Positions 25,157-33,345 of a DNA stretch of 64,000 bases are shown here, piece by piece. The position numbers and the translations under genes are program-made. The stretch's first letter is position 1. Each line of letters begins with the position of its first letter. Source of the stretch: a virus. Its lineage: Duplodnaviria; Heunggongvirae; Uroviricota; Caudoviricetes. Under the pieces are notes generated by a model. That model was not told the origin of the DNA. It worked only from the letters and a program-made list of their open reading frames with translations, and searched no databases. The stretch is from the IMG/VR virus record IMGVR_UViG_2537561978_000005. One strand, written 5' to 3'.

Positions 25157-26229
25157 TGCTTGCATTTACACAACTTACATTAGTTCGAAATAAGCTAAGG
25201 GAGATATCAGAATCTCCCTATTTTTCTAAAGACATGCATGAATATCTTGCTGTTCTACAAGAAGCGGTAGATAAGCTCTATGAAAACCATGTGAATGTTG
25301 CTGATAAAATAATTGCGGATTGTACTTTTTTTATCACCGATGCAGTTAATTTTTTCACTGGCAGTACTACAAAGAAAATTCCCTACGAGATTGTTTATTG
25401 CTTAAATGATGCCTGTAAAAAATGGATAAGTGAAAAAACACTTATAACCACAGCCCTATCTCCAGATATGCATGGGTTTTATTTTAAGTCTGTAAACAAG
25501 AATTTGTATTCTTTATTTGATGAAGTTTTAAATGTCAAATTCGAGGTCGAATTAATTCAGATTTCATTACCTGAAATGTACAGAAGACGACCATTATGCT
25601 CTATACCTTTATATCACGAATTGGGACATTTCGTTGATATTAGCAAAGGTATTTCTGAGCTTGCCTGTCTTAACTATCGTTCCAAGGACAAAGGCACACT
25701 TCCAGGACCAGAATGGAGTAATCTACCTGATGTTATTTGGATAAATCATTGCAGAGAATATTTTGCAGATCTATTTAGTGCCCAATTTATTGGAAAAAGT
25801 GGGGTAGATTTCTTATACAAATTAGCTGGCTCTCATCCTGCAAGCTATACTCACCCATCCACAGAAGATAGAGTTAAAATTGTAAGCGACTTTTTGAACA
25901 AAGTGGAAAATCCAGTTGTTGGCATGTTCAATGCTGTGATATCAGCCTTACATAAGGGTGGGCAGATTATTTCTCCTTGTTTGACATTGCCGACACCTTT
26001 GCTTGATGTGAAATCAGCTTTTGATAATGTGCGTCCTTTTGTTATTCGCGACCACAATGAAATGCATGCTTTTATTAACAGCAGCTGGCAGTACTTATGC
26101 TCTGAATGGGAAAAACCTACGGGTATATGGTCTGGGTTGTCAAAAGAAGCCATAGAAAAAACTATAAATGATTTGGTTGAAAAATCGATTCGAAACGTAA
26201 TGATTCTTGAAAAATGGAGTGCACAATGA
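25156..26229 (+). CDS. ImmA/IrrE-type (COG2856-like) HExxH zinc metallopeptidase domain protein
   Basis: 357 aa; LYHELGHFVD followed ~35 aa later by REYFADLFSAQFIG (E-x-FA signature). Confidence 0.55.
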   Translation: MLAFTQLTLVRNKLREISESPYFSKDMHEYLAVLQEAVDKLYENHVNVADKIIADCTFFITDAVNFFTGSTTKKIPYEIVYCLNDACKKWISEKTLITTALSPDMHGFYFKSVNKNLYSLFDEVLNVKFEVELIQISLPEMYRRRPLCSIPLYHELGHFVDISKGISELACLNYRSKDKGTLPGPEWSNLPDVIWINHCREYFADLFSAQFIGKSGVDFLYKLAGSHPASYTHPSTEDRVKIVSDFLNKVENPVVGMFNAVISALHKGGQIISPCLTLPTPLLDVKSAFDNVRPFVIRDHNEMHAFINSSWQYLCSEWEKPTGIWSGLSKEAIEKTINDLVEKSIRNVMILEKWSAQ

Positions 26230-26843
26230 ATCTCCTAAGCAAAGCTGAATTGCTGCAATATTATGAATCAGAAGAACCTGAGTCGTTGTTCATTGAACCT
26301 CTTCTAAATAAAAACCAAATTGGAAACTTCACCATAGACCTTAGACTTGGTTACGATTTTTTAGTGTCTATTATGACAAGGAAGCCGTCAATAGAGTTAA
26401 TTCCCTCAAAAAACAATGATACTCATCAACCAATCAGAACATTTTTCCAGGAAACAAGGAGAGATCTTGGGGATAGGTTCATTGTTTACCCGAATCAAGT
26501 GGTACTGGCAACAACATTAGAATATGTTTGTTTGCCACCAGATTGCTACGCTGATGTATTGTCCAGAAGCAGCTATACAAGGCTTGGTCTTTCATTAAAT
26601 ACCATGATACAACCAGGGTACAGAGGCTGTATATCTTTAGAGTTATTTAATCATGGGAATAGCCCTGTAGAACTTATTGTTGGATCTCGCATATGTCAAA
26701 TTCGTATATTCAAGAATGAAACTGTCGGTGAATACATAAGTCATGAGTCTCACAGGAAATATTTCGGAAATGTGAGGCCAACCGTCTCAGCAGCAGAAAG
26801 TGATAATGAATTAAATATGCTGGAAAAGATCCGACAAAAATGA
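26226..26843 (+). CDS. dCTP deaminase / dUTPase-superfamily protein
   Basis: IDLRLG, SRSSYTRLGL and IQPGYRGCISLELFN match recalled Dcd motifs VDVRLG, GRSSLARLGL, IDPGWSGCIVLEFYN; start coupled (ATGA). Confidence 0.65.
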   Translation: MNLLSKAELLQYYESEEPESLFIEPLLNKNQIGNFTIDLRLGYDFLVSIMTRKPSIELIPSKNNDTHQPIRTFFQETRRDLGDRFIVYPNQVVLATTLEYVCLPPDCYADVLSRSSYTRLGLSLNTMIQPGYRGCISLELFNHGNSPVELIVGSRICQIRIFKNETVGEYISHESHRKYFGNVRPTVSAAESDNELNMLEKIRQK

Positions 26844-26931
26844 AGACTTTAATGCTTTATATTATAAAAACATACAGCGACAACGCAGCCACCAAGATGT
26901 GTTGTCGCCATGTTCAAAGTGCTAACACAGT

Positions 26932-29218: not shown

Positions 29219-29548
29219 ATGGGCTATAGCAGACTCGACGACAGGTACATTGAAGACGATATTTTTCGTGCGCTGTTTCACCAGGAAATGATTAAGCGGG
29301 TATCGGAGTATCACTCTGATAATTTCCAGTACACGATAAAGATTGATGAAGTATATCGTTCAGACCTTGCAGCCTACCGGGCGTATGGCAATGCAGATTT
29401 GCGCTGGGTATTCCGGGTGCTGGTGGGCCATGAGTCAGAAATGGAAGAAATGCCCGCCGGGACCACGTTAACTCTTCCTGATGTGGCATGGCTGAGGAAC
29501 AAGATCCGTGATTACGCGAGCGCGGAACCGGAGATAGAAAATGCCTGA
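29219..29548 (+). CDS. hypothetical protein
   Basis: 109-aa ORF; overlaps next gene start. Confidence 0.45.
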   Translation: MGYSRLDDRYIEDDIFRALFHQEMIKRVSEYHSDNFQYTIKIDEVYRSDLAAYRAYGNADLRWVFRVLVGHESEMEEMPAGTTLTLPDVAWLRNKIRDYASAEPEIENA

Positions 29549-30734
29549 TTTCCTGAAAAACCAGGACGGGCGCTATATCACTGACGGCCTGTCCTCTAAG
29601 GACTTCACGCGTTTATTCGACCTTATCAGGAAAGAACAAACCCGTAAGCGCCGACAAGCTCACCGGACGCTGACGCCAGGTAGACTGAGGAACAAATCCG
29701 CCGAAGATATTCTCAAGTTAGGGAAGAAAAAAGGCGGCACGTTCTTCACGCGAGACGACCTGAAAGGTTTCGAAAAGCTACGGAGTAAAACACGCGAAAA
29801 ATATGACAGCAAGACGGCTGGCATCACATACGCCCAGCTGGTGGCATCCAGCCAGGCAATCGATATTAAGCGTGCAAATAACGCCGTGGATGACGGATCT
29901 GGTATCAAAAGAGCTACACCCGTATCTCTTCGCCACAACGTGATTAATATCCGCGTAGAAGCATCGGATATATCCGTCCACCAGCACCATATCGTCCGGA
30001 TACGCTTTGAAGAATGGGATCAGATGGTTGATGACATCGCAGAAGACGATAAATCAGCTCTGAAAATCACTAAATCACTGTGCGCCGGGCGAGTGTCTTT
30101 CGATTGTGACTGTGGTCGTCATCAATACTGGTATCGTTACATCGCTACTGCGGGTAACTTTGCCCTGGCCCCGCCAAAAGAATACGCCTATCCAAAAGTT
30201 CGTAACCCTAAGCTACAAGGCGTCGCCTGTAAACACGTGATCCACTCAATGACGCGGTTACAGTCCGCAAGTTGGCAAATGAGTATTGCTCGTGCACTAC
30301 AAAAGGCTGCAACGCAAATTGCATTTGGTGACGATCGCCGACGTACAACCAAACACTTCTCAAAAGAAGACGAGAAGGAGTTTAATCGCAATCGTAGCAG
30401 TAAAACGAACGTTGAAGCCGCCAAACGCGAATGGAGACTCTATCAGAAGCGCCAGGCAGCTTTAAGTACAAAACTGGCAAAGGACAACGGCAAGATCGAC
30501 AAACTACGTGACCAATTGACCAAGGCCAGAAAGTTGTCAGATGCACAGAAAAAACGGGCGGCAGCAAAAGAAGCGGCCTTGCAACGTGAGAAACAGAAAA
30601 ACAAGGAGCTTCAGCAACGCCTTGCCGATCAGTTCGCACTGAAGAAGCAGGCGTTCATTGATGCGCTTGTCATGGCTGGAACACCACCAGCACAAGCTGA
30701 AAAAATGTTCATGGAGTATGTAAAAAAAGCATAA
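29541..30734 (+). CDS. hypothetical protein with SWIM-like CxC...CxH zinc motif and basic coiled-coil C-terminus
   Basis: 397 aa; FDCDCGRHQYW ... GVACKHV. Confidence 0.5.
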   Translation: MPDFLKNQDGRYITDGLSSKDFTRLFDLIRKEQTRKRRQAHRTLTPGRLRNKSAEDILKLGKKKGGTFFTRDDLKGFEKLRSKTREKYDSKTAGITYAQLVASSQAIDIKRANNAVDDGSGIKRATPVSLRHNVINIRVEASDISVHQHHIVRIRFEEWDQMVDDIAEDDKSALKITKSLCAGRVSFDCDCGRHQYWYRYIATAGNFALAPPKEYAYPKVRNPKLQGVACKHVIHSMTRLQSASWQMSIARALQKAATQIAFGDDRRRTTKHFSKEDEKEFNRNRSSKTNVEAAKREWRLYQKRQAALSTKLAKDNGKIDKLRDQLTKARKLSDAQKKRAAAKEAALQREKQKNKELQQRLADQFALKKQAFIDALVMAGTPPAQAEKMFMEYVKKA

Positions 30735-30767
30735 ACCACACATAGCCTAGCTGCCTAGGCTAGGCTT

Positions 30768-31496
30768 TCATCTTTTTGAAAAATCAATTTCCGTTTTATC
30801 AAATAAATTTGAAATATCAGCAACCAATTTATTAAAATCATGATCGCCATTATAAAGCGAAGTCTTCTTTATTGCCATTACAAAATCATATAACTTTTCT
30901 GGGGAGTCAATACCAACCCCTCTACTTTTAAAAAGCTCAATGATAACTCCAACATCATCATATAATAATTTTATTGCCGCCATAATCTCTTTTTGCTGCC
31001 TAAGCAATCTCTCAAGTTCATTTTTATTTTCATCCATAATTCTTTTGTTGAATTGTGTATCATTAATACTTTTTATTATTTCAGTCTCTTTTATTTGCAA
31101 CGCCTTTCTTTTATTTTGATCCATGTCGGCATCCAAATACCTTATCTCTGTATATATTTTACTTGTTAGCTTTGATACGCAAAGAGTGACAATCGGAGCT
31201 GCAATTGATGCAATAATTCCAAAAATAAATGGCAAGCAAAAATGATAAAACCAAGGAGACAAAACGCCTTCATAAACTAGAGGAATCTTACCTCCAACAA
31301 ATGTTACAGATAAAGTATATAGGATATCATCCTTTGACTTCATCAATATTAGTATATCTTTCCAATTAATAATTAGAAAAGAAATGAATATATATGCAAA
31401 CACTTTATTAAAAAGCTTGTCTTTTATGGCATCTCCAAAAGATACTTTGATTAGATCATTTTCAGTCAATTTTTCTGTTGATGAATCTGTATTCAT
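30768..31496 (-). CDS. AT-rich membrane protein (two predicted TM helices + coiled coil), hypothetical
   Basis: 242 aa; very low GC; hydrophobic segments VFAYIFISFLIINW and FCLPFIFGIIASIAAPIVTLCV. Confidence 0.55.
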   Translation of the reverse strand: MNTDSSTEKLTENDLIKVSFGDAIKDKLFNKVFAYIFISFLIINWKDILILMKSKDDILYTLSVTFVGGKIPLVYEGVLSPWFYHFCLPFIFGIIASIAAPIVTLCVSKLTSKIYTEIRYLDADMDQNKRKALQIKETEIIKSINDTQFNKRIMDENKNELERLLRQQKEIMAAIKLLYDDVGVIIELFKSRGVGIDSPEKLYDFVMAIKKTSLYNGDHDFNKLVADISNLFDKTEIDFSKR

Positions 31497-31500
31497 ATAA

Positions 31501-31623
31501 ACTACCGTGATTTCTAATATCTATTTTATGAAAATTCATTTCCGGTTCGTTATCGAACATCGGTTCGACCGCACGCAGTGCGGCCTCATAATCTTGTTCT
31601 GTACGGATAGATTTAATGTTCAT
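31501..31623 (-). pseudogene. possible N-terminal remnant of a HigA-type antitoxin
   Basis: MNIKSIRTEQDYEAALRAVEPMFDNEPE resembles N-termini of HigA-family antitoxins, then runs out of frame into AT-rich gene; no clear RBS. Confidence 0.25.
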
Positions 31624-31636
31624 TAATTACAAAGGA

Positions 31637-31662
31637 AAGCCCACTTGCTAAGTGGGCTTTTT
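31637..31662 (+). terminator. intrinsic terminator AAGCCCACTT-loop-AAGTGGGCTT + T5
   Basis: 10-bp stem; partial U-run on minus strand too. Confidence 0.55.
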
Positions 31663-31679
31663 GTATGTGTTTTACTATA

Positions 31680-32018
31680 TCAGGCTGCTTTTTTATTCAG
31701 GTTCCGCTGAGAAATAAATTTTTCAGCAGTATTGATACGACTTAACTCTTCCTGAACGCGCATATCATTTTCGACTTCCCACAGGTCTACTGCGGTCTGA
31801 AGATTAATCCAAAAATCTACAGAAGTATCGAATGCTTTTGCCAGGCGATATGCCATATCCATCGTTAGCTTACGATTATTATTAACAAGAGCACTTACGG
31901 TGTTACGATGAACATGAAGTATTTCTGCTAACTCGTTGATCTTCAGCTCTAACGGCTCCAGGTATTCGTACAGCAGGATATCACCTACGGTCGTCGGTTT
32001 TCTGGTTGCCTGTTTCAT
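31680..32018 (-). CDS. higA: HigA-family antitoxin (XRE helix-turn-helix)
   Basis: 112 aa; TVGDILLYEYLEPLELKINELAEILHVHRNTVSALVNNNRKLTMDMAYRLAKAFDTSVDFWINLQ. Confidence 0.8.
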   Translation of the reverse strand: MKQATRKPTTVGDILLYEYLEPLELKINELAEILHVHRNTVSALVNNNRKLTMDMAYRLAKAFDTSVDFWINLQTAVDLWEVENDMRVQEELSRINTAEKFISQRNLNKKAA

Positions 32019-32088
32019 TTTTTGCCCTTACTAGCGTGCGTATTAAGTGGACTCTGGTCAGAACCCGGTCCGTAACCGGGTATCTGTT

Positions 32089-32391
32089 TTAGTATTTGTG
32101 AGGGTCGAGATACAAGTCCTCGGCCTTTCCGTTAACCCACCTAAAAATTAACCTATATTGCTTATTCACCCTTACTGATGAATAGCCATTTAGCTTCCCT
32201 GACAGTTCCTCATACCGATTACCTGGTGGTGATCTTAAATCCTTACAGGTAGTTGCGGCATTGATAATGTCCAACTTCCGTGACAATGTCATATGAATAT
32301 CAGGAGGTATCTTTCTATGTGGTGTTGAAAATTCAAAAAAATCATCAAGCCACGCATCCCTGAAATCCTTTATGTTAATTTTTTTGGTCAT
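32089..32391 (-). CDS. higB: HigB-family toxin (RelE/ParE superfamily)
   Basis: 100 aa; PPGNRYEELSGKLNGYSSVRVNKQYRLIFRW pattern; toxin-first gene order. Confidence 0.8.
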   Translation of the reverse strand: MTKKINIKDFRDAWLDDFFEFSTPHRKIPPDIHMTLSRKLDIINAATTCKDLRSPPGNRYEELSGKLNGYSSVRVNKQYRLIFRWVNGKAEDLYLDPHKY

Positions 32392-32553
32392 TAGTCATTT
32401 GATCCTCCGTGATGATTACCGAATGCCATAACTATAGCGCACCGTTGCACTGTGCGCAAGTGCATTTTATGAATTCCCCCTCCTTCATCCAAAATCACAA
32501 TCTCCAGAAAATCTTCCTTTCGATACCTGACAGATCGACCTTTGAGGATGCTT

Positions 32554-33345
32554 ATGGGCCGTTTTGACGAATGGTTTGCTGACGATGCAAACCTGGCAAG
32601 TAAGGAGTCAGAACATGACAGCACGCAGAGAGAAACGCCAGCGCCGATTGAAGCGAATGCAGGAGGCGCGCCGGAACATGGCAATACCGGTTCGGATTCA
32701 TTCAGCATTCTGGAAGAGCAACCCGCCGCCAAAGCTGATAGCCATGATAATTTTGCTGATAGCAACGGTGGCCTTACTCCGGATGCTGGCGAATCAGATA
32801 TAGCCATACTTCCATCTTCCCTGGCTGGCAGAGAACCGACTCCACAGTTAAAAGCACGCTATAACGGGCATAAAGCCTTTAACGACCAAATCCGCGCAGA
32901 CTGGATGCTGATTATTGAATCCAGCCCAGACGCGTTTCAGGCTCTCTTATATCGACCAGATGTTGGCACATATGGGGTAGTCAGCGACGAAACAGGAGAA
33001 GAGTCATTCACCGAACTGGATAACAACCAACGCGAACTGACTTACCAGGAACCTGAAATCGTTTATGTGCTGGATAACCCTGACGGGCGTGACTCTTTCC
33101 ATGCGATTGACGCAGACGGTGAGCAGGATGGCTTAACCGATGATGTTCTGATTCTGCGTATTGCAGCAAATAACGTCCCCGTCGGCTCAATTCTTGAATG
33201 GAATGAAGAGATGGTAAACGGCGTAGCGCGCCGCTGGTGGTACGTGCACCGTATTTTTAGCTACGGCACACAGCATGTTGGTTCGCTTTACTACTGCATA
33301 CCTGCCAGGAATTTTGATACGACTCAAAACGGAGTGATCGAATGA
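32554..33345 (+). CDS. hypothetical acidic protein (first gene of a plus-strand operon)
   Basis: ORF 32542..33345; ATG at 32554 has GAGG 6 nt upstream; stop overlaps next start. Confidence 0.5.
   Translation: MGRFDEWFADDANLASKESEHDSTQRETPAPIEANAGGAPEHGNTGSDSFSILEEQPAAKADSHDNFADSNGGLTPDAGESDIAILPSSLAGREPTPQLKARYNGHKAFNDQIRADWMLIIESSPDAFQALLYRPDVGTYGVVSDETGEESFTELDNNQRELTYQEPEIVYVLDNPDGRDSFHAIDADGEQDGLTDDVLILRIAANNVPVGSILEWNEEMVNGVARRWWYVHRIFSYGTQHVGSLYYCIPARNFDTTQNGVIE

Follow-up and report, generated by a model that had tools for sequence, protein, structure and literature searches.

Probable decay of an orphaned HigA-type antitoxin gene beside an intact AT-rich membrane gene in the cargo site of a D6-like plasmid prophage

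Introduction

How did the first codons of a second antitoxin gene come to stand, without the rest of that gene, directly before a very AT-rich membrane gene in a prophage that also carries a complete higBA pair? The stretch of DNA analysed here (the window, 64,000 nucleotides) raises this question between positions 30,768 and 32,391. A preliminary description of the region had listed higB, higA, a terminator, a 53-codon reading frame and a 242-aa AT-rich gene, all of which we find where it had placed them, and had proposed that the AT-rich gene was inserted into, or replaced, the second antitoxin gene. Comparison with relatives leads us to another account, which we consider probable: higBA is intact, an orphan higA was largely removed by a deletion, and the AT-rich gene was its intact neighbour before that deletion took place.

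Results

Judged by its sequence, the window appears to be a D6-like (P1-family) plasmid prophage. Across the region it is 99.6% identical at the DNA level to Escherichia phage D6, aligning in two pieces, and every flanking gene is intact and 99-100% identical to that of D6. The region corresponds to the cargo cassette that D6-like (P1-family) plasmid prophages carry on the opposite strand, bounded on one edge by the homologue of P1 tail gene 25 (29541..30734, plus strand) and on the other by the homologue of P1 tail gene 7 (32554..33345, plus strand). Both edges follow the D6 annotation and tblastn anchors, the gene 25 anchor matching at 100% and being found in all P1-like loci compared. A hairpin at 30743..30766, recovered by the hairpin scan on both strands and likely a bidirectional terminator, separates the convergent ends of tail gene 25 and the membrane gene. 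The element type, the gene 25/gene 7 site and the order of the four genes are those of D6 orf70-orf73 (MF356679 / NC_050154); D6 has a full 119-aa orf72 with a hairpin behind it, and it is from this part that the window lacks 295 bp. The cassette consists of three units, namely the higBA operon, a dead stub of a K-12-type higA, and the AT-rich gene orf73.

The first unit needs little discussion. The intact higB gene (32089..32391, minus strand, 100 aa; D6 orf70) matches PF05015 over profile positions 1-91 of 91 (E 9.2e-35; 119.4 bits, above the cutoff of 27) and PHROG 3066, 'toxin of TA system' (E 5e-37); the D6 annotation calls orf70 a RelE family toxin, and the product is best read from these matches as a RelE-fold toxin of the Rts1/plasmid-killer HigB type. 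Following it in toxin-first order with 70-nt spacing is the cognate antitoxin gene higA (31680..32018, minus strand, 112 aa, intact; D6 orf71), which scores 102.5 bits against TIGR02607 antidote_HigA (E 7.9e-30; cutoff 47.7, exceeded) and has an Xre-type helix-turn-helix (HTH) recognised by PF01381 HTH_3 (E 7e-11). The sequence upstream of higB (32392..32480, minus strand) reads as a likely promoter/operator region. Within it the hairpin scan found an inverted repeat, TGCACTGTGCGCAAGTGCA, at 32446-32464, with a TATAGT -10-like hexamer immediately downstream; this repeat is a putative and likely higBA operator. The operon ends in a terminator-like hairpin, AAAGCCCACTTAGCAAGTGGGCTTT, at 31636..31660 (minus strand), with an 11-bp stem containing 5 G-C pairs and an identical copy in D6. 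Together higB and higA form a type II toxin-antitoxin pair (PF05015/TIGR02607), equipped with a terminator and a likely promoter region of its own. Set beside the plasmid Rts1-type HigB-HigA, the pair at 31680-32391 is an ordinary member, passing both curated family thresholds in toxin-first order with no notable difference. The HigBA pair has been cited as an addiction system of D6 (PMC6799933).

The short reading frame behind this operon had been taken for an antitoxin-like fragment of 28 residues. The remnant is real, and alignment to D6 orf72 identifies it as the N-terminus of a second HigA-family antitoxin gene, but 30 native residues are kept rather than 28. tblastn with orf72 recovers from the window residues 1-30 of 119 only, at 31534..31623 (minus strand), 30/30 of them collinear with D6 orf72 with one substitution (P5S); apart from P5S, the 53-codon frame in its 5' part, and likewise the DNA upstream, matches the orf72 region of D6 without a difference. 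The remnant ATG lies 12 nt past the stem of the higA terminator hairpin. The 53-codon frame as a whole (31462..31623, minus strand; starting MNIKSIRTEQDYEAALRAVEPMFDNEPE) is a chimera, in which the 30 native HigA codons (ending in EPEMN) are followed by 23 codons that run through what was once intergenic DNA into the first 35 nt of the following gene, so that it overlaps the start of the 242-aa frame by 35 nt.

Which HigA this was can be told from the D6 copy, which matches the E. coli K-12 HigA structures (PDB 5IFG/5YCL) over residues 6-112 with E 8e-8 and is a homologue of K-12 HigA. The HigA type of the K-12 HigB-HigA pair (YgjN-YgjM; PDB 5IFG, 5YCL, 6KML) is common to D6 orf72 and the window stub. 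Its N-terminal part is helical and its C-terminal part an Xre-type HTH. In K-12, likewise in sister plasmids, the antitoxin comes after a PF09907 HigB toxin, whereas the window lacks the toxin partner and keeps only 30 N-terminal residues. Because the HTH domain (residues 63-115) is wholly absent from the remnant, residues 31-119 being deleted, and because a Pfam scan of the 53-aa frame gave no match, we regard the remnant as a pseudogene rather than a functional K-12-type HigA; such a stub should be able neither to bind DNA nor to work as a regulator.

One profile did match the short frame: its first 32 residues align with positions 1-33 of the PADLOC PD-Lambda-2_B profile (E 0.002). PD-lambda-2 consists of a HigB-like gene, a gene with a HigA-like N-terminal region, and a third, P4-antitoxin-like gene (Vassallo et al. 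2022; PMC9519451). We rejected membership in this system, since only positions 1-33 of the 402 match and both the peptidase and the third gene are absent: PD-lambda-2B is a 402-position HTH-peptidase fusion, whereas full-length orf72 has 119 aa and no peptidase, and the third component has no counterpart in the window, orf73 having no PADLOC match. The likeness of the stub to PD-lambda-2 reflects only the shared HigA N-terminus.

The alignment of the window to D6 contains a single 295-bp gap with identical flanks (D6 segment about MF356679 68370-68666), placing the deletion junction at 31534..31536 with a 2-bp microhomology, AT, at 31534-31535. The lost 295 bp comprise orf72 codons 31-119, the stop codon and the hairpin GGCGGTC-tggat-GACCGC, and relative to D6 the window carries no extra sequence. 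An intact 119-aa orf72 precedes a 99%-identical AT-rich gene in D6, in five PLSDB plasmids and in four E. coli RefSeq plasmids. An uninterrupted locus, with which the preliminary description had proposed a comparison, exists in D6, and there the AT-rich gene is already the neighbour of the antitoxin gene. Because D6 already has an intact orf72 followed by the same orf73, orf73 was not inserted into the antitoxin gene in the window lineage. Insertion or replacement by the AT-rich gene would account for a stub abutting that gene at a sharp drop in GC content; for the window we nevertheless consider it very improbable, as the ten near-identical records have the full orf72, the same orf73 allele and the same 5' leader, and the removal of 295 bp from the D6 arrangement explains what is seen.

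The replacement idea is better suited to a sister lineage with another orf73 allele, 58% identical. There the D6 homology ends inside the antitoxin gene (higA2) near codon 61, and the other membrane-gene allele starts 22 nt past the stop codon of a 66-aa stub; in the sister lineage, therefore, a true replacement did take place, with its breakpoint inside the antitoxin gene.

Could the 295-bp gap itself be a sequencing or assembly artefact? The junction between GGAAATGA and ATTTTCAT is otherwise found in only two records, Salmonella sp. Sa1423 plasmids pSa1423-160k and pSa1423-90k, which are error-rich and about 92% identical. Yet the junction is base-identical across the three records, the genes flanking it in the window are intact and 99-100% identical to D6, and the breakpoints lack long repeats of the kind that could mislead an assembler. 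We find an artefact hardly credible.

What was the state of orf72 before the deletion? D6 orf72 is 97% identical to an antitoxin whose gene lies 3 nt after a PF09907 HigB toxin gene in CP066033, and pTB423 has a PF09907 toxin and antitoxin in a CP066033-like arrangement. By tblastn, this toxin, HigB2 (PF09907), is present in three of the loci compared (L005, L008 and L046) and was not found between tail genes 25 and 7 in either the window or D6. The sister-plasmid operator before higB2, GTCCCA-N3-TGGGAC in two copies, has zero matches at up to two mismatches in the whole 64-kb window. These comparisons suggest that orf72 is an orphan antitoxin in the D6 lineage, with the PF05015 higBA pair occupying the place of its cognate PF09907 toxin.

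The window is not the only place where such a gene is broken. The 66-aa stub, which has a different breakpoint, occurs in 9/16 IMG/VR loci and 70/112 PLSDB plasmids, and points to a second, independent loss of the orf72-type HTH. All seven toxin-paired antitoxin copies examined are full length. Both independent losses also take out the hairpin between the antitoxin and membrane genes. The orphan copies of orf72 that are intact show dN/dS of 0.05-0.10 between them, that is, strong purifying selection, for which reason an orphan orf72 may still act in other plasmids, for example by neutralising the HigB of a competing plasmid; its loss in the window therefore need not have been strictly neutral. 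Orphan or 'anti-addiction' antitoxins, such as chromosomal ccdA-like genes, are antitoxins kept without their toxin on a replicon that meets toxin-bearing relatives. Orphan orf72 resembles them in this, and its intact copies are under purifying selection, but the window copy is destroyed and any such role is gone.

The third unit, orf73 (30768..31496, minus strand; PHROG 8191, E 7.5e-115), is an intact gene of 242 aa with a product 99.2% identical to the D6 protein and a GC content of 29.2%, against 46.5% for the whole window. Between the stub and orf73, the minus strand showed no convincing sigma-70 promoter. The two hydrophobic helices noticed earlier are borne out by hydropathy, as residues 32-52 (31341..31403, minus strand) and 85-108 (31173..31244, minus strand). 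The first contains a family-invariant N44 and a near-invariant W45 (alignments A3, A4 and A5). The second, supported also by alignments and the AlphaFold2 (AF2) model, has conserved H85, P89, G93 and P101 and continues into a long helix, taken as cytoplasmic. The AF2 model built with 57 sequences (pLDDT 86.7; an earlier one with 13 sequences was poor, pLDDT 65) predicts a membrane hairpin, a continuous helix of about 110 residues and a small helical C-terminal part; the protein is presumed to be located in the inner membrane. Between alleles, residues 25-122 are 64% identical, compared with 25% for residues 123-192, so the family combines a conserved, polar-studded membrane hairpin with a fast-evolving cytoplasmic stalk.

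Searches with orf73 returned little that bears on its function. The Pfam, NCBIfam and PADLOC profiles gave no credible match, and the 57 relatives searched against Pfam and PADLOC gave only low-complexity coiled-coil artefacts (LmuB/JetC-type models in PADLOC). A Foldseek search of the PDB with the 13-sequence model gave no match below E = 2, and fold searches returned only generic long helices. No homology to characterised exclusion or defence proteins was found in PADLOC-DB v2, Pfam or the PDB. The family is very small, with only 70 clusters at 50% identity among 1.84 billion representatives, and a search of the GTDB species-representative genomes with alignment A3 found no relative.

The contexts of orf73 relatives are more informative. 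Those examined are only phage-plasmids, a P2-like prophage and genomic islands, and the GC content of the gene is below that of the surrounding DNA in 12/12 contexts measured. In the P2-like prophage, whose holin is a separate gene (PF04550), a distant homologue stands by itself amid the tail genes, on the opposite strand; further homologues stand alone in genomic islands without an adjacent HTH gene, and one adjoins a PDC-S06 candidate defence gene. Conversely, pTB423 carries higB2-higA2 and the same hairpin without orf73. From these distributions, orf73 would be a separately acquired unit, independent of orf72. We rejected orf73 as a type II TA toxin, since homologues stand alone and the window keeps orf73 without orf72, and as a holin or lysis-cassette protein, since it sits between tail genes on the opposite strand.

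Independence of the two genes has to be weighed against their frequent adjacency. Genes of the orf72 type and the orf73 family are neighbours in all P1-like family carriers and the Klebsiella plasmid inspected, and the intergenic hairpin is gone in both independent HTH losses, as might be expected if the membrane protein were a toxic effector held in check by the HigA-like protein, through repression or neutralisation, and then unleashed or up-regulated by the deletion. We consider such a functional pair improbable. The membrane gene is intact in the deletion carriers as well as in the 70 plasmids that have the 66-aa stub, a terminator hairpin lies between the two genes in every full-length version examined, and an operator of the sister-plasmid type, being absent from the window, is absent near orf73; moreover, as described above, each of the two genes occurs without the other, orf73 homologues having no HTH neighbour and pTB423 no membrane gene.

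A related possibility is that HigB (PF09907), HigA and the membrane protein formed an ancestral three-component system resembling PD-lambda-2 or TAC, in which the TA pair senses infection and the membrane protein is an accessory or effector, and of which the window would be a broken relic. The three genes are syntenic in E. coli and Enterobacter P1-like plasmids and in Klebsiella IncFIB/HI1B plasmids, a second TA family appears as a TacAT operon directly upstream of orf73 homologues in Citrobacter phage-plasmids, and three-gene defence systems derived from TA modules have a precedent (PMC9519451). Members of the orf73 family thus directly follow a TA operon in two phage-plasmid families that are unrelated, HigBA in the P1-like group and TacAT in the Citrobacter plasmids, and the reason could be a functional link instead of shared use of a cargo site. 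We rejected the Klebsiella copies as an independent association of HigBA with orf73, since they carry the 5' end of a P1-like tail gene 7; the Klebsiella copy appears to be a captured P1-like fragment. A hairpin terminator separates the second and third genes in every three-gene version examined, and the TA pair also occurs without the third gene, as does the third gene without a TA pair. We regard a three-component origin as quite unlikely.

Discussion

Our consideration of how the locus came about starts from an ancestral arrangement in which the K-12-type antitoxin gene would have lain directly behind its own PF09907 HigB toxin gene. In the D6 lineage, the PF05015 higBA pair with its terminator would then have taken the place of the toxin, right up to the orf72 ATG, leaving orf72 orphaned without a promoter or operator of its own. 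In the window, an illegitimate 295-bp deletion between sites sharing the 2-bp microhomology would finally have taken residues 31-119 together with the terminator hairpin of the ancestral operon. With the toxin gone, loss of the antitoxin would be tolerated; in agreement with this, none of the toxin-paired loci inspected has a truncated copy. We infer that the 295-bp deletion was neutral decay, and we see only one possible regulatory effect, the removal of a terminator between upstream transcription and orf73.

That one effect could be given more weight. The orf73 family might be a new single-gene exclusion or abortive-infection effector placed behind a TA terminator, with the losses of HTH and terminator selected for raising its expression; an infection that brings about loss of the labile antitoxin-repressor would then increase read-through into orf73. 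We consider this elaboration unlikely.

What orf73 does is a separate matter from how its neighbour was lost. From its context and architecture (cargo site, AT-rich composition, opposite strand, variable cytoplasmic part) we infer that orf73 is cargo of the prophage and works at the membrane, superinfection exclusion or abortive defence being its most likely task; such a role, which the preliminary description also had in mind, is one we hold only tentatively, at somewhat less than even confidence. Membrane exclusion and abortive-infection proteins of prophages include T4 Imm, P22 SieA, HK97 gp15 and lambda RexB. Like orf73, these are small to mid-size membrane cargo of temperate elements, encoded outside the structural operons; the likeness does not go beyond genomic lifestyle. 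Alternatively, orf73 might be unrelated to defence or exclusion, perhaps a membrane-anchored coiled coil that serves the element itself (for example in plasmid tethering or partition, the timing of lysis or the remodelling of the envelope) or a factor interacting with the host, in keeping with the lack of a match to any defence model. To this alternative we give a minor share of our belief. Plasmids that are otherwise collinear may have or lack the gene, it is AT-rich and lies on the strand opposite the structural genes, the cytoplasmic part of its product differs strongly from allele to allele, and the family occupies known accessory or defence sites such as the P2 tail-gene region; an optional, opposite-strand and variable gene follows the pattern of cargo under diversifying pressure, not of a core element function.

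The locus is, in the end, a case of ordinary gene decay beside an intact uncharacterised membrane gene, and the remnant carries little weight by itself, being an antitoxin gene decaying once its toxin was displaced. The larger interest is that the gene 25/gene 7 cargo site of P1/D6-like phage-plasmids has a readable history, in which the type of HigBA would have been swapped, the DNA-binding half of the leftover antitoxin lost twice, and membrane-gene alleles exchanged. For annotation, the 66-aa protein (PHROG 10398) and the 53-aa frame are best entered as antitoxin stubs. As for orf73, this very small, uncharacterised mobile-element family is, because of its conserved membrane hairpin and fast-evolving cytoplasmic stalk, a cheap candidate for phage-exclusion assays.

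Organization of the cargo and the intact higBA operon

Between the plus-strand homologues of P1 tail genes 25 (29541-30734) and 7 (32554-33345), which border the cargo on its two sides, the minus strand carries, in order, higB (32089-32391; PF05015, 119 bits against a threshold of 27), higA (31680-32018; TIGR02607, 102.5 bits against 47.7), a terminator-like hairpin with an 11-bp stem (31636-31660), a 53-codon reading frame (31462-31623) and a 242-codon frame (30768-31496) of 29% GC, compared to 46.5% for the whole window, with hydrophobic segments at residues 32-52 and 85-108. The preliminary description of this arrangement was thus accurate in every detail, coordinates, base composition and hydrophobic segments included. 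Together, higB and higA form a complete toxin-antitoxin (TA) operon of ordinary type, and we infer that it serves plasmid-prophage maintenance, in line with the role of higBA in D6-like plasmids (PMC6799933). In front of higB, just upstream of a TATAGT hexamer, lies the inverted repeat TGCACTGTGCGCAAGTGCA (32446-32464), which, judged from sequence, is the probable operator for the intact HigA; the repeat sits, too, in the 5' region of the sequence upstream of the divergent tail gene. A 138-aa reading frame directly upstream of higB (32391-32807, minus strand) overlaps the 5' end of opposite-strand tail gene 7 and is probably spurious, because D6 has no annotation there. A few kb away, near the homologues of D6 pmgF and orf80, a second AT-rich stretch (33-39% GC, 26000-26900) may be another cargo insertion.

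A 295-bp deletion in the second antitoxin gene

Annotation of this locus already exists for Escherichia phage D6, a plasmid prophage of the P1 family, with which the 2.1-kb region aligns in two pieces at 99.6% identity. Four genes are annotated in D6 between the gene 25 and gene 7 homologues: orf70 (RelE-family toxin), orf71 (HigA antitoxin), orf72 (119 aa, ‘HigA family’ protein or transcriptional regulator) and orf73 (242 aa, hypothetical protein). The two pieces of the alignment are separated by a single 295-bp gap with near-identical flanks on both sides, which is very unlikely to be an assembly artefact; the junction, at 31534-31536 with 2 bp (AT) of microhomology, is common only to two error-rich Salmonella sp. 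Sa1423 plasmids, where it recurs base for base. Codons 31-119 of orf72, its stop codon and a hairpin, GGCGGTC-tggat-GACCGC, were removed. What is left is the 53-codon frame, composed of 30 native orf72 residues (with P5S) and 23 codons read from former intergenic DNA and the first 35 nt of orf73, so the earlier suspicion that this frame is the remnant of a second antitoxin-like gene proved correct. The deletion turned the second antitoxin gene into a pseudogene.

It had also been proposed that the AT-rich gene inserted into, or replaced, the antitoxin gene in this lineage. This is contradicted by the D6 alignment, in which the 295-bp gap is the only interruption and orf73 has the leader and start that it has in the window. 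Comparison with uninterrupted relatives leads to the same conclusion: in D6 and in five PLSDB plasmids and four E. coli RefSeq plasmids bearing the same orf73 allele, orf72 stands intact before orf73, and therefore orf73 was not inserted into the antitoxin gene. The membrane-protein gene, itself intact, is older than the deletion and was already the neighbour of orf72, which was gutted later, a loss that we infer to have been neutral or nearly so. After the deletion, the hairpin at 31636-31660 is the sole terminator between the higBA promoter and orf73.

Orphan status and recurrent truncation of higA2

Full-length orf72 matches the solved structures of E. coli K-12 HigA (5IFG, 5YCL; E 8e-8, residues 6-112), with an HTH_3 domain at residues 63-115. 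In profile searches of the two minus-strand frames, the stub weakly matched the first 33 positions of PADLOC PD-Lambda-2_B, and the 242-aa protein had no credible match in Pfam, NCBIfam or PADLOC. PD-Lambda-2_B joins a peptidase to an N-terminal domain resembling HigA (PMC9519451), and its likeness to the stub is the shared HigA N-terminus and nothing beyond.

In the sister plasmids E. coli CP066033 and pTB423 a 97%-identical homologue (higA2) starts 3 nt after the gene for a PF09907 HigB toxin (higB2), with two GTCCCA-N3-TGGGAC palindromes around the promoter ahead of higB2. Homology between the D6 lineage and these plasmids ends approximately at the orf72 start codon; the PF05015 higB-higA pair and its terminator take the place of the sister-plasmid sequence, the orf72 ATG lies 12 nt past the terminator stem, and the operator has no match with up to two mismatches in the whole 64-kb window. 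D6-type orf72 is therefore an orphan antitoxin without toxin, promoter or operator. A repressor-effector or antitoxin-toxin pairing of orf72 with orf73 is unlikely, considering the missing sister-plasmid-type operator, the intact state of orf73 in stub-bearing plasmids and the existence of lone orf73 homologues.

Loss of the DNA-binding half of this antitoxin has also happened independently, and much more commonly, through a separate 66-aa stub (PHROG 10398). In the 16 IMG/VR loci that carry a member of the orf73 family, higA2 is this 66-aa frame in nine (loci L033-L040 and L047; e.g. L036:2725-2925), an intact orphan in six and toxin-paired in one; a 401-bp probe across the junction detected it in 70 of the 112 PLSDB plasmids carrying any higA2 DNA. 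These stubs are identical to D6 until about codon 61 and then differ, and the membrane gene, present as a 58%-identical allele, begins 22 nt past the stop codon; their origin is allele replacement with a breakpoint inside higA2. The inner hairpin removed by the 295-bp deletion is gone from this lineage as well. Toxin-paired copies were full length in all seven inspected, a pattern in line with standard TA logic, in which the antitoxin is dispensable only once the toxin is gone. Because dN/dS among intact orphan copies is 0.05-0.10, some plasmids may keep them for a role such as neutralizing HigB2 of a competing plasmid.

The orf73 family and its genomic contexts

The membrane gene occurs independently of both TA genes. 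E. coli CP066033 carries higB2-higA2 with a 243-aa coiled-coil protein; pTB423 carries higB2-higA2 only, and their hairpin has become a convergent terminator with gene 25. For a system of three components, HigB2, HigA2 and the membrane protein, the TacAT parallel described below offers slight support; the existence of forms with two genes or with one, and the terminator in between, weaken the idea, which strikes us as quite improbable. In all three-gene versions examined a hairpin of lineage-specific sequence separates higA2 from the membrane gene. Another hairpin, AGCCTAGC-TGCC-TAGGCTAGGCT (30743-30766), lies where orf73 and tail gene 25 converge; sister plasmids have unlike hairpins there, and the alleles of the membrane gene each seem to come with a terminator of their own.

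The family (PHROG 8191, function unassigned in PHROG) is small, with only 70 clusters found when 1.84 billion representatives were searched exhaustively by profile, and a scan of 57 relatives returned coiled-coil noise only. Alleles at the P1-like site are on average 64% identical in the membrane part (residues 25-122) and only 25% in the stalk (123-192); across the wider family N44 is fully conserved and W45, P89 and P101 almost fully. GC content was below that of the surroundings in 12 of 12 contexts measured.

A distant relative (24% identical; L013-L016:4001-4651) stands alone on the opposite strand in a P2-like prophage, where it lies between baseplate gene V and the gpS side of the tail genes and adjoins a 247-aa gene without Pfam match; in P2-like phages this region has been described as an accessory and defence site (PMC13586616). 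Other relatives lie in an island with DUF1173, DUF4942 and H-NS genes, beside a WYL regulator, and in small chromosomal islets, one of which adjoins a candidate defence gene, PDC-S06; this neighbour of relative P0041 (L028:5980-8322) encodes a 780-aa AAA_13 protein (PADLOC, E 2.6e-255). Two are directly behind a TacA-TacT pair (DUF1778 and GNAT toxin), beside a baseplate gene, on Citrobacter plasmids of ~98 kb. Such Citrobacter freundii plasmids (L025:2781-4714, L021:3068-4726, L031) are a phage-plasmid family distinct from the P1-like one, placing a second TA family immediately upstream of the orf73 family.

The copies inspected on large Klebsiella IncFIB/HI1B plasmids were rejected as an independent association: IS elements flank both, the membrane gene is truncated, and the copy read at sequence level holds the beginning (5' end) of tail gene 7 of the P1-like type. 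What these plasmids carry is a piece of a P1-like phage-plasmid bordered by IS elements. In K. pneumoniae pNH25.1 (L009, 4171-5381) that 5' end is accompanied by higB2-higA2, a truncated 137-aa orf73 homologue and IS903B; the other copy (L011) has the same higB2-higA2 and a still shorter remnant adjoining ISKpn26.

As cargo, orf73 might work at the membrane to counter phages or DNA entering the cell, and its variable stalk perhaps sets specificity. No promoter for it was found on the minus strand between the stub and the gene. The idea of a novel membrane effector, acting by exclusion or abortively and with expression coupled to TA read-through, we regard as a long shot, and a role unrelated to defence is a real possibility. 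The finding itself is genuine but ordinary: an orphan antitoxin that has decayed, within a phage-plasmid family already known. What interest remains lies in an uncharacterised membrane-protein family and its repeated place behind TA operons on phage-plasmids.
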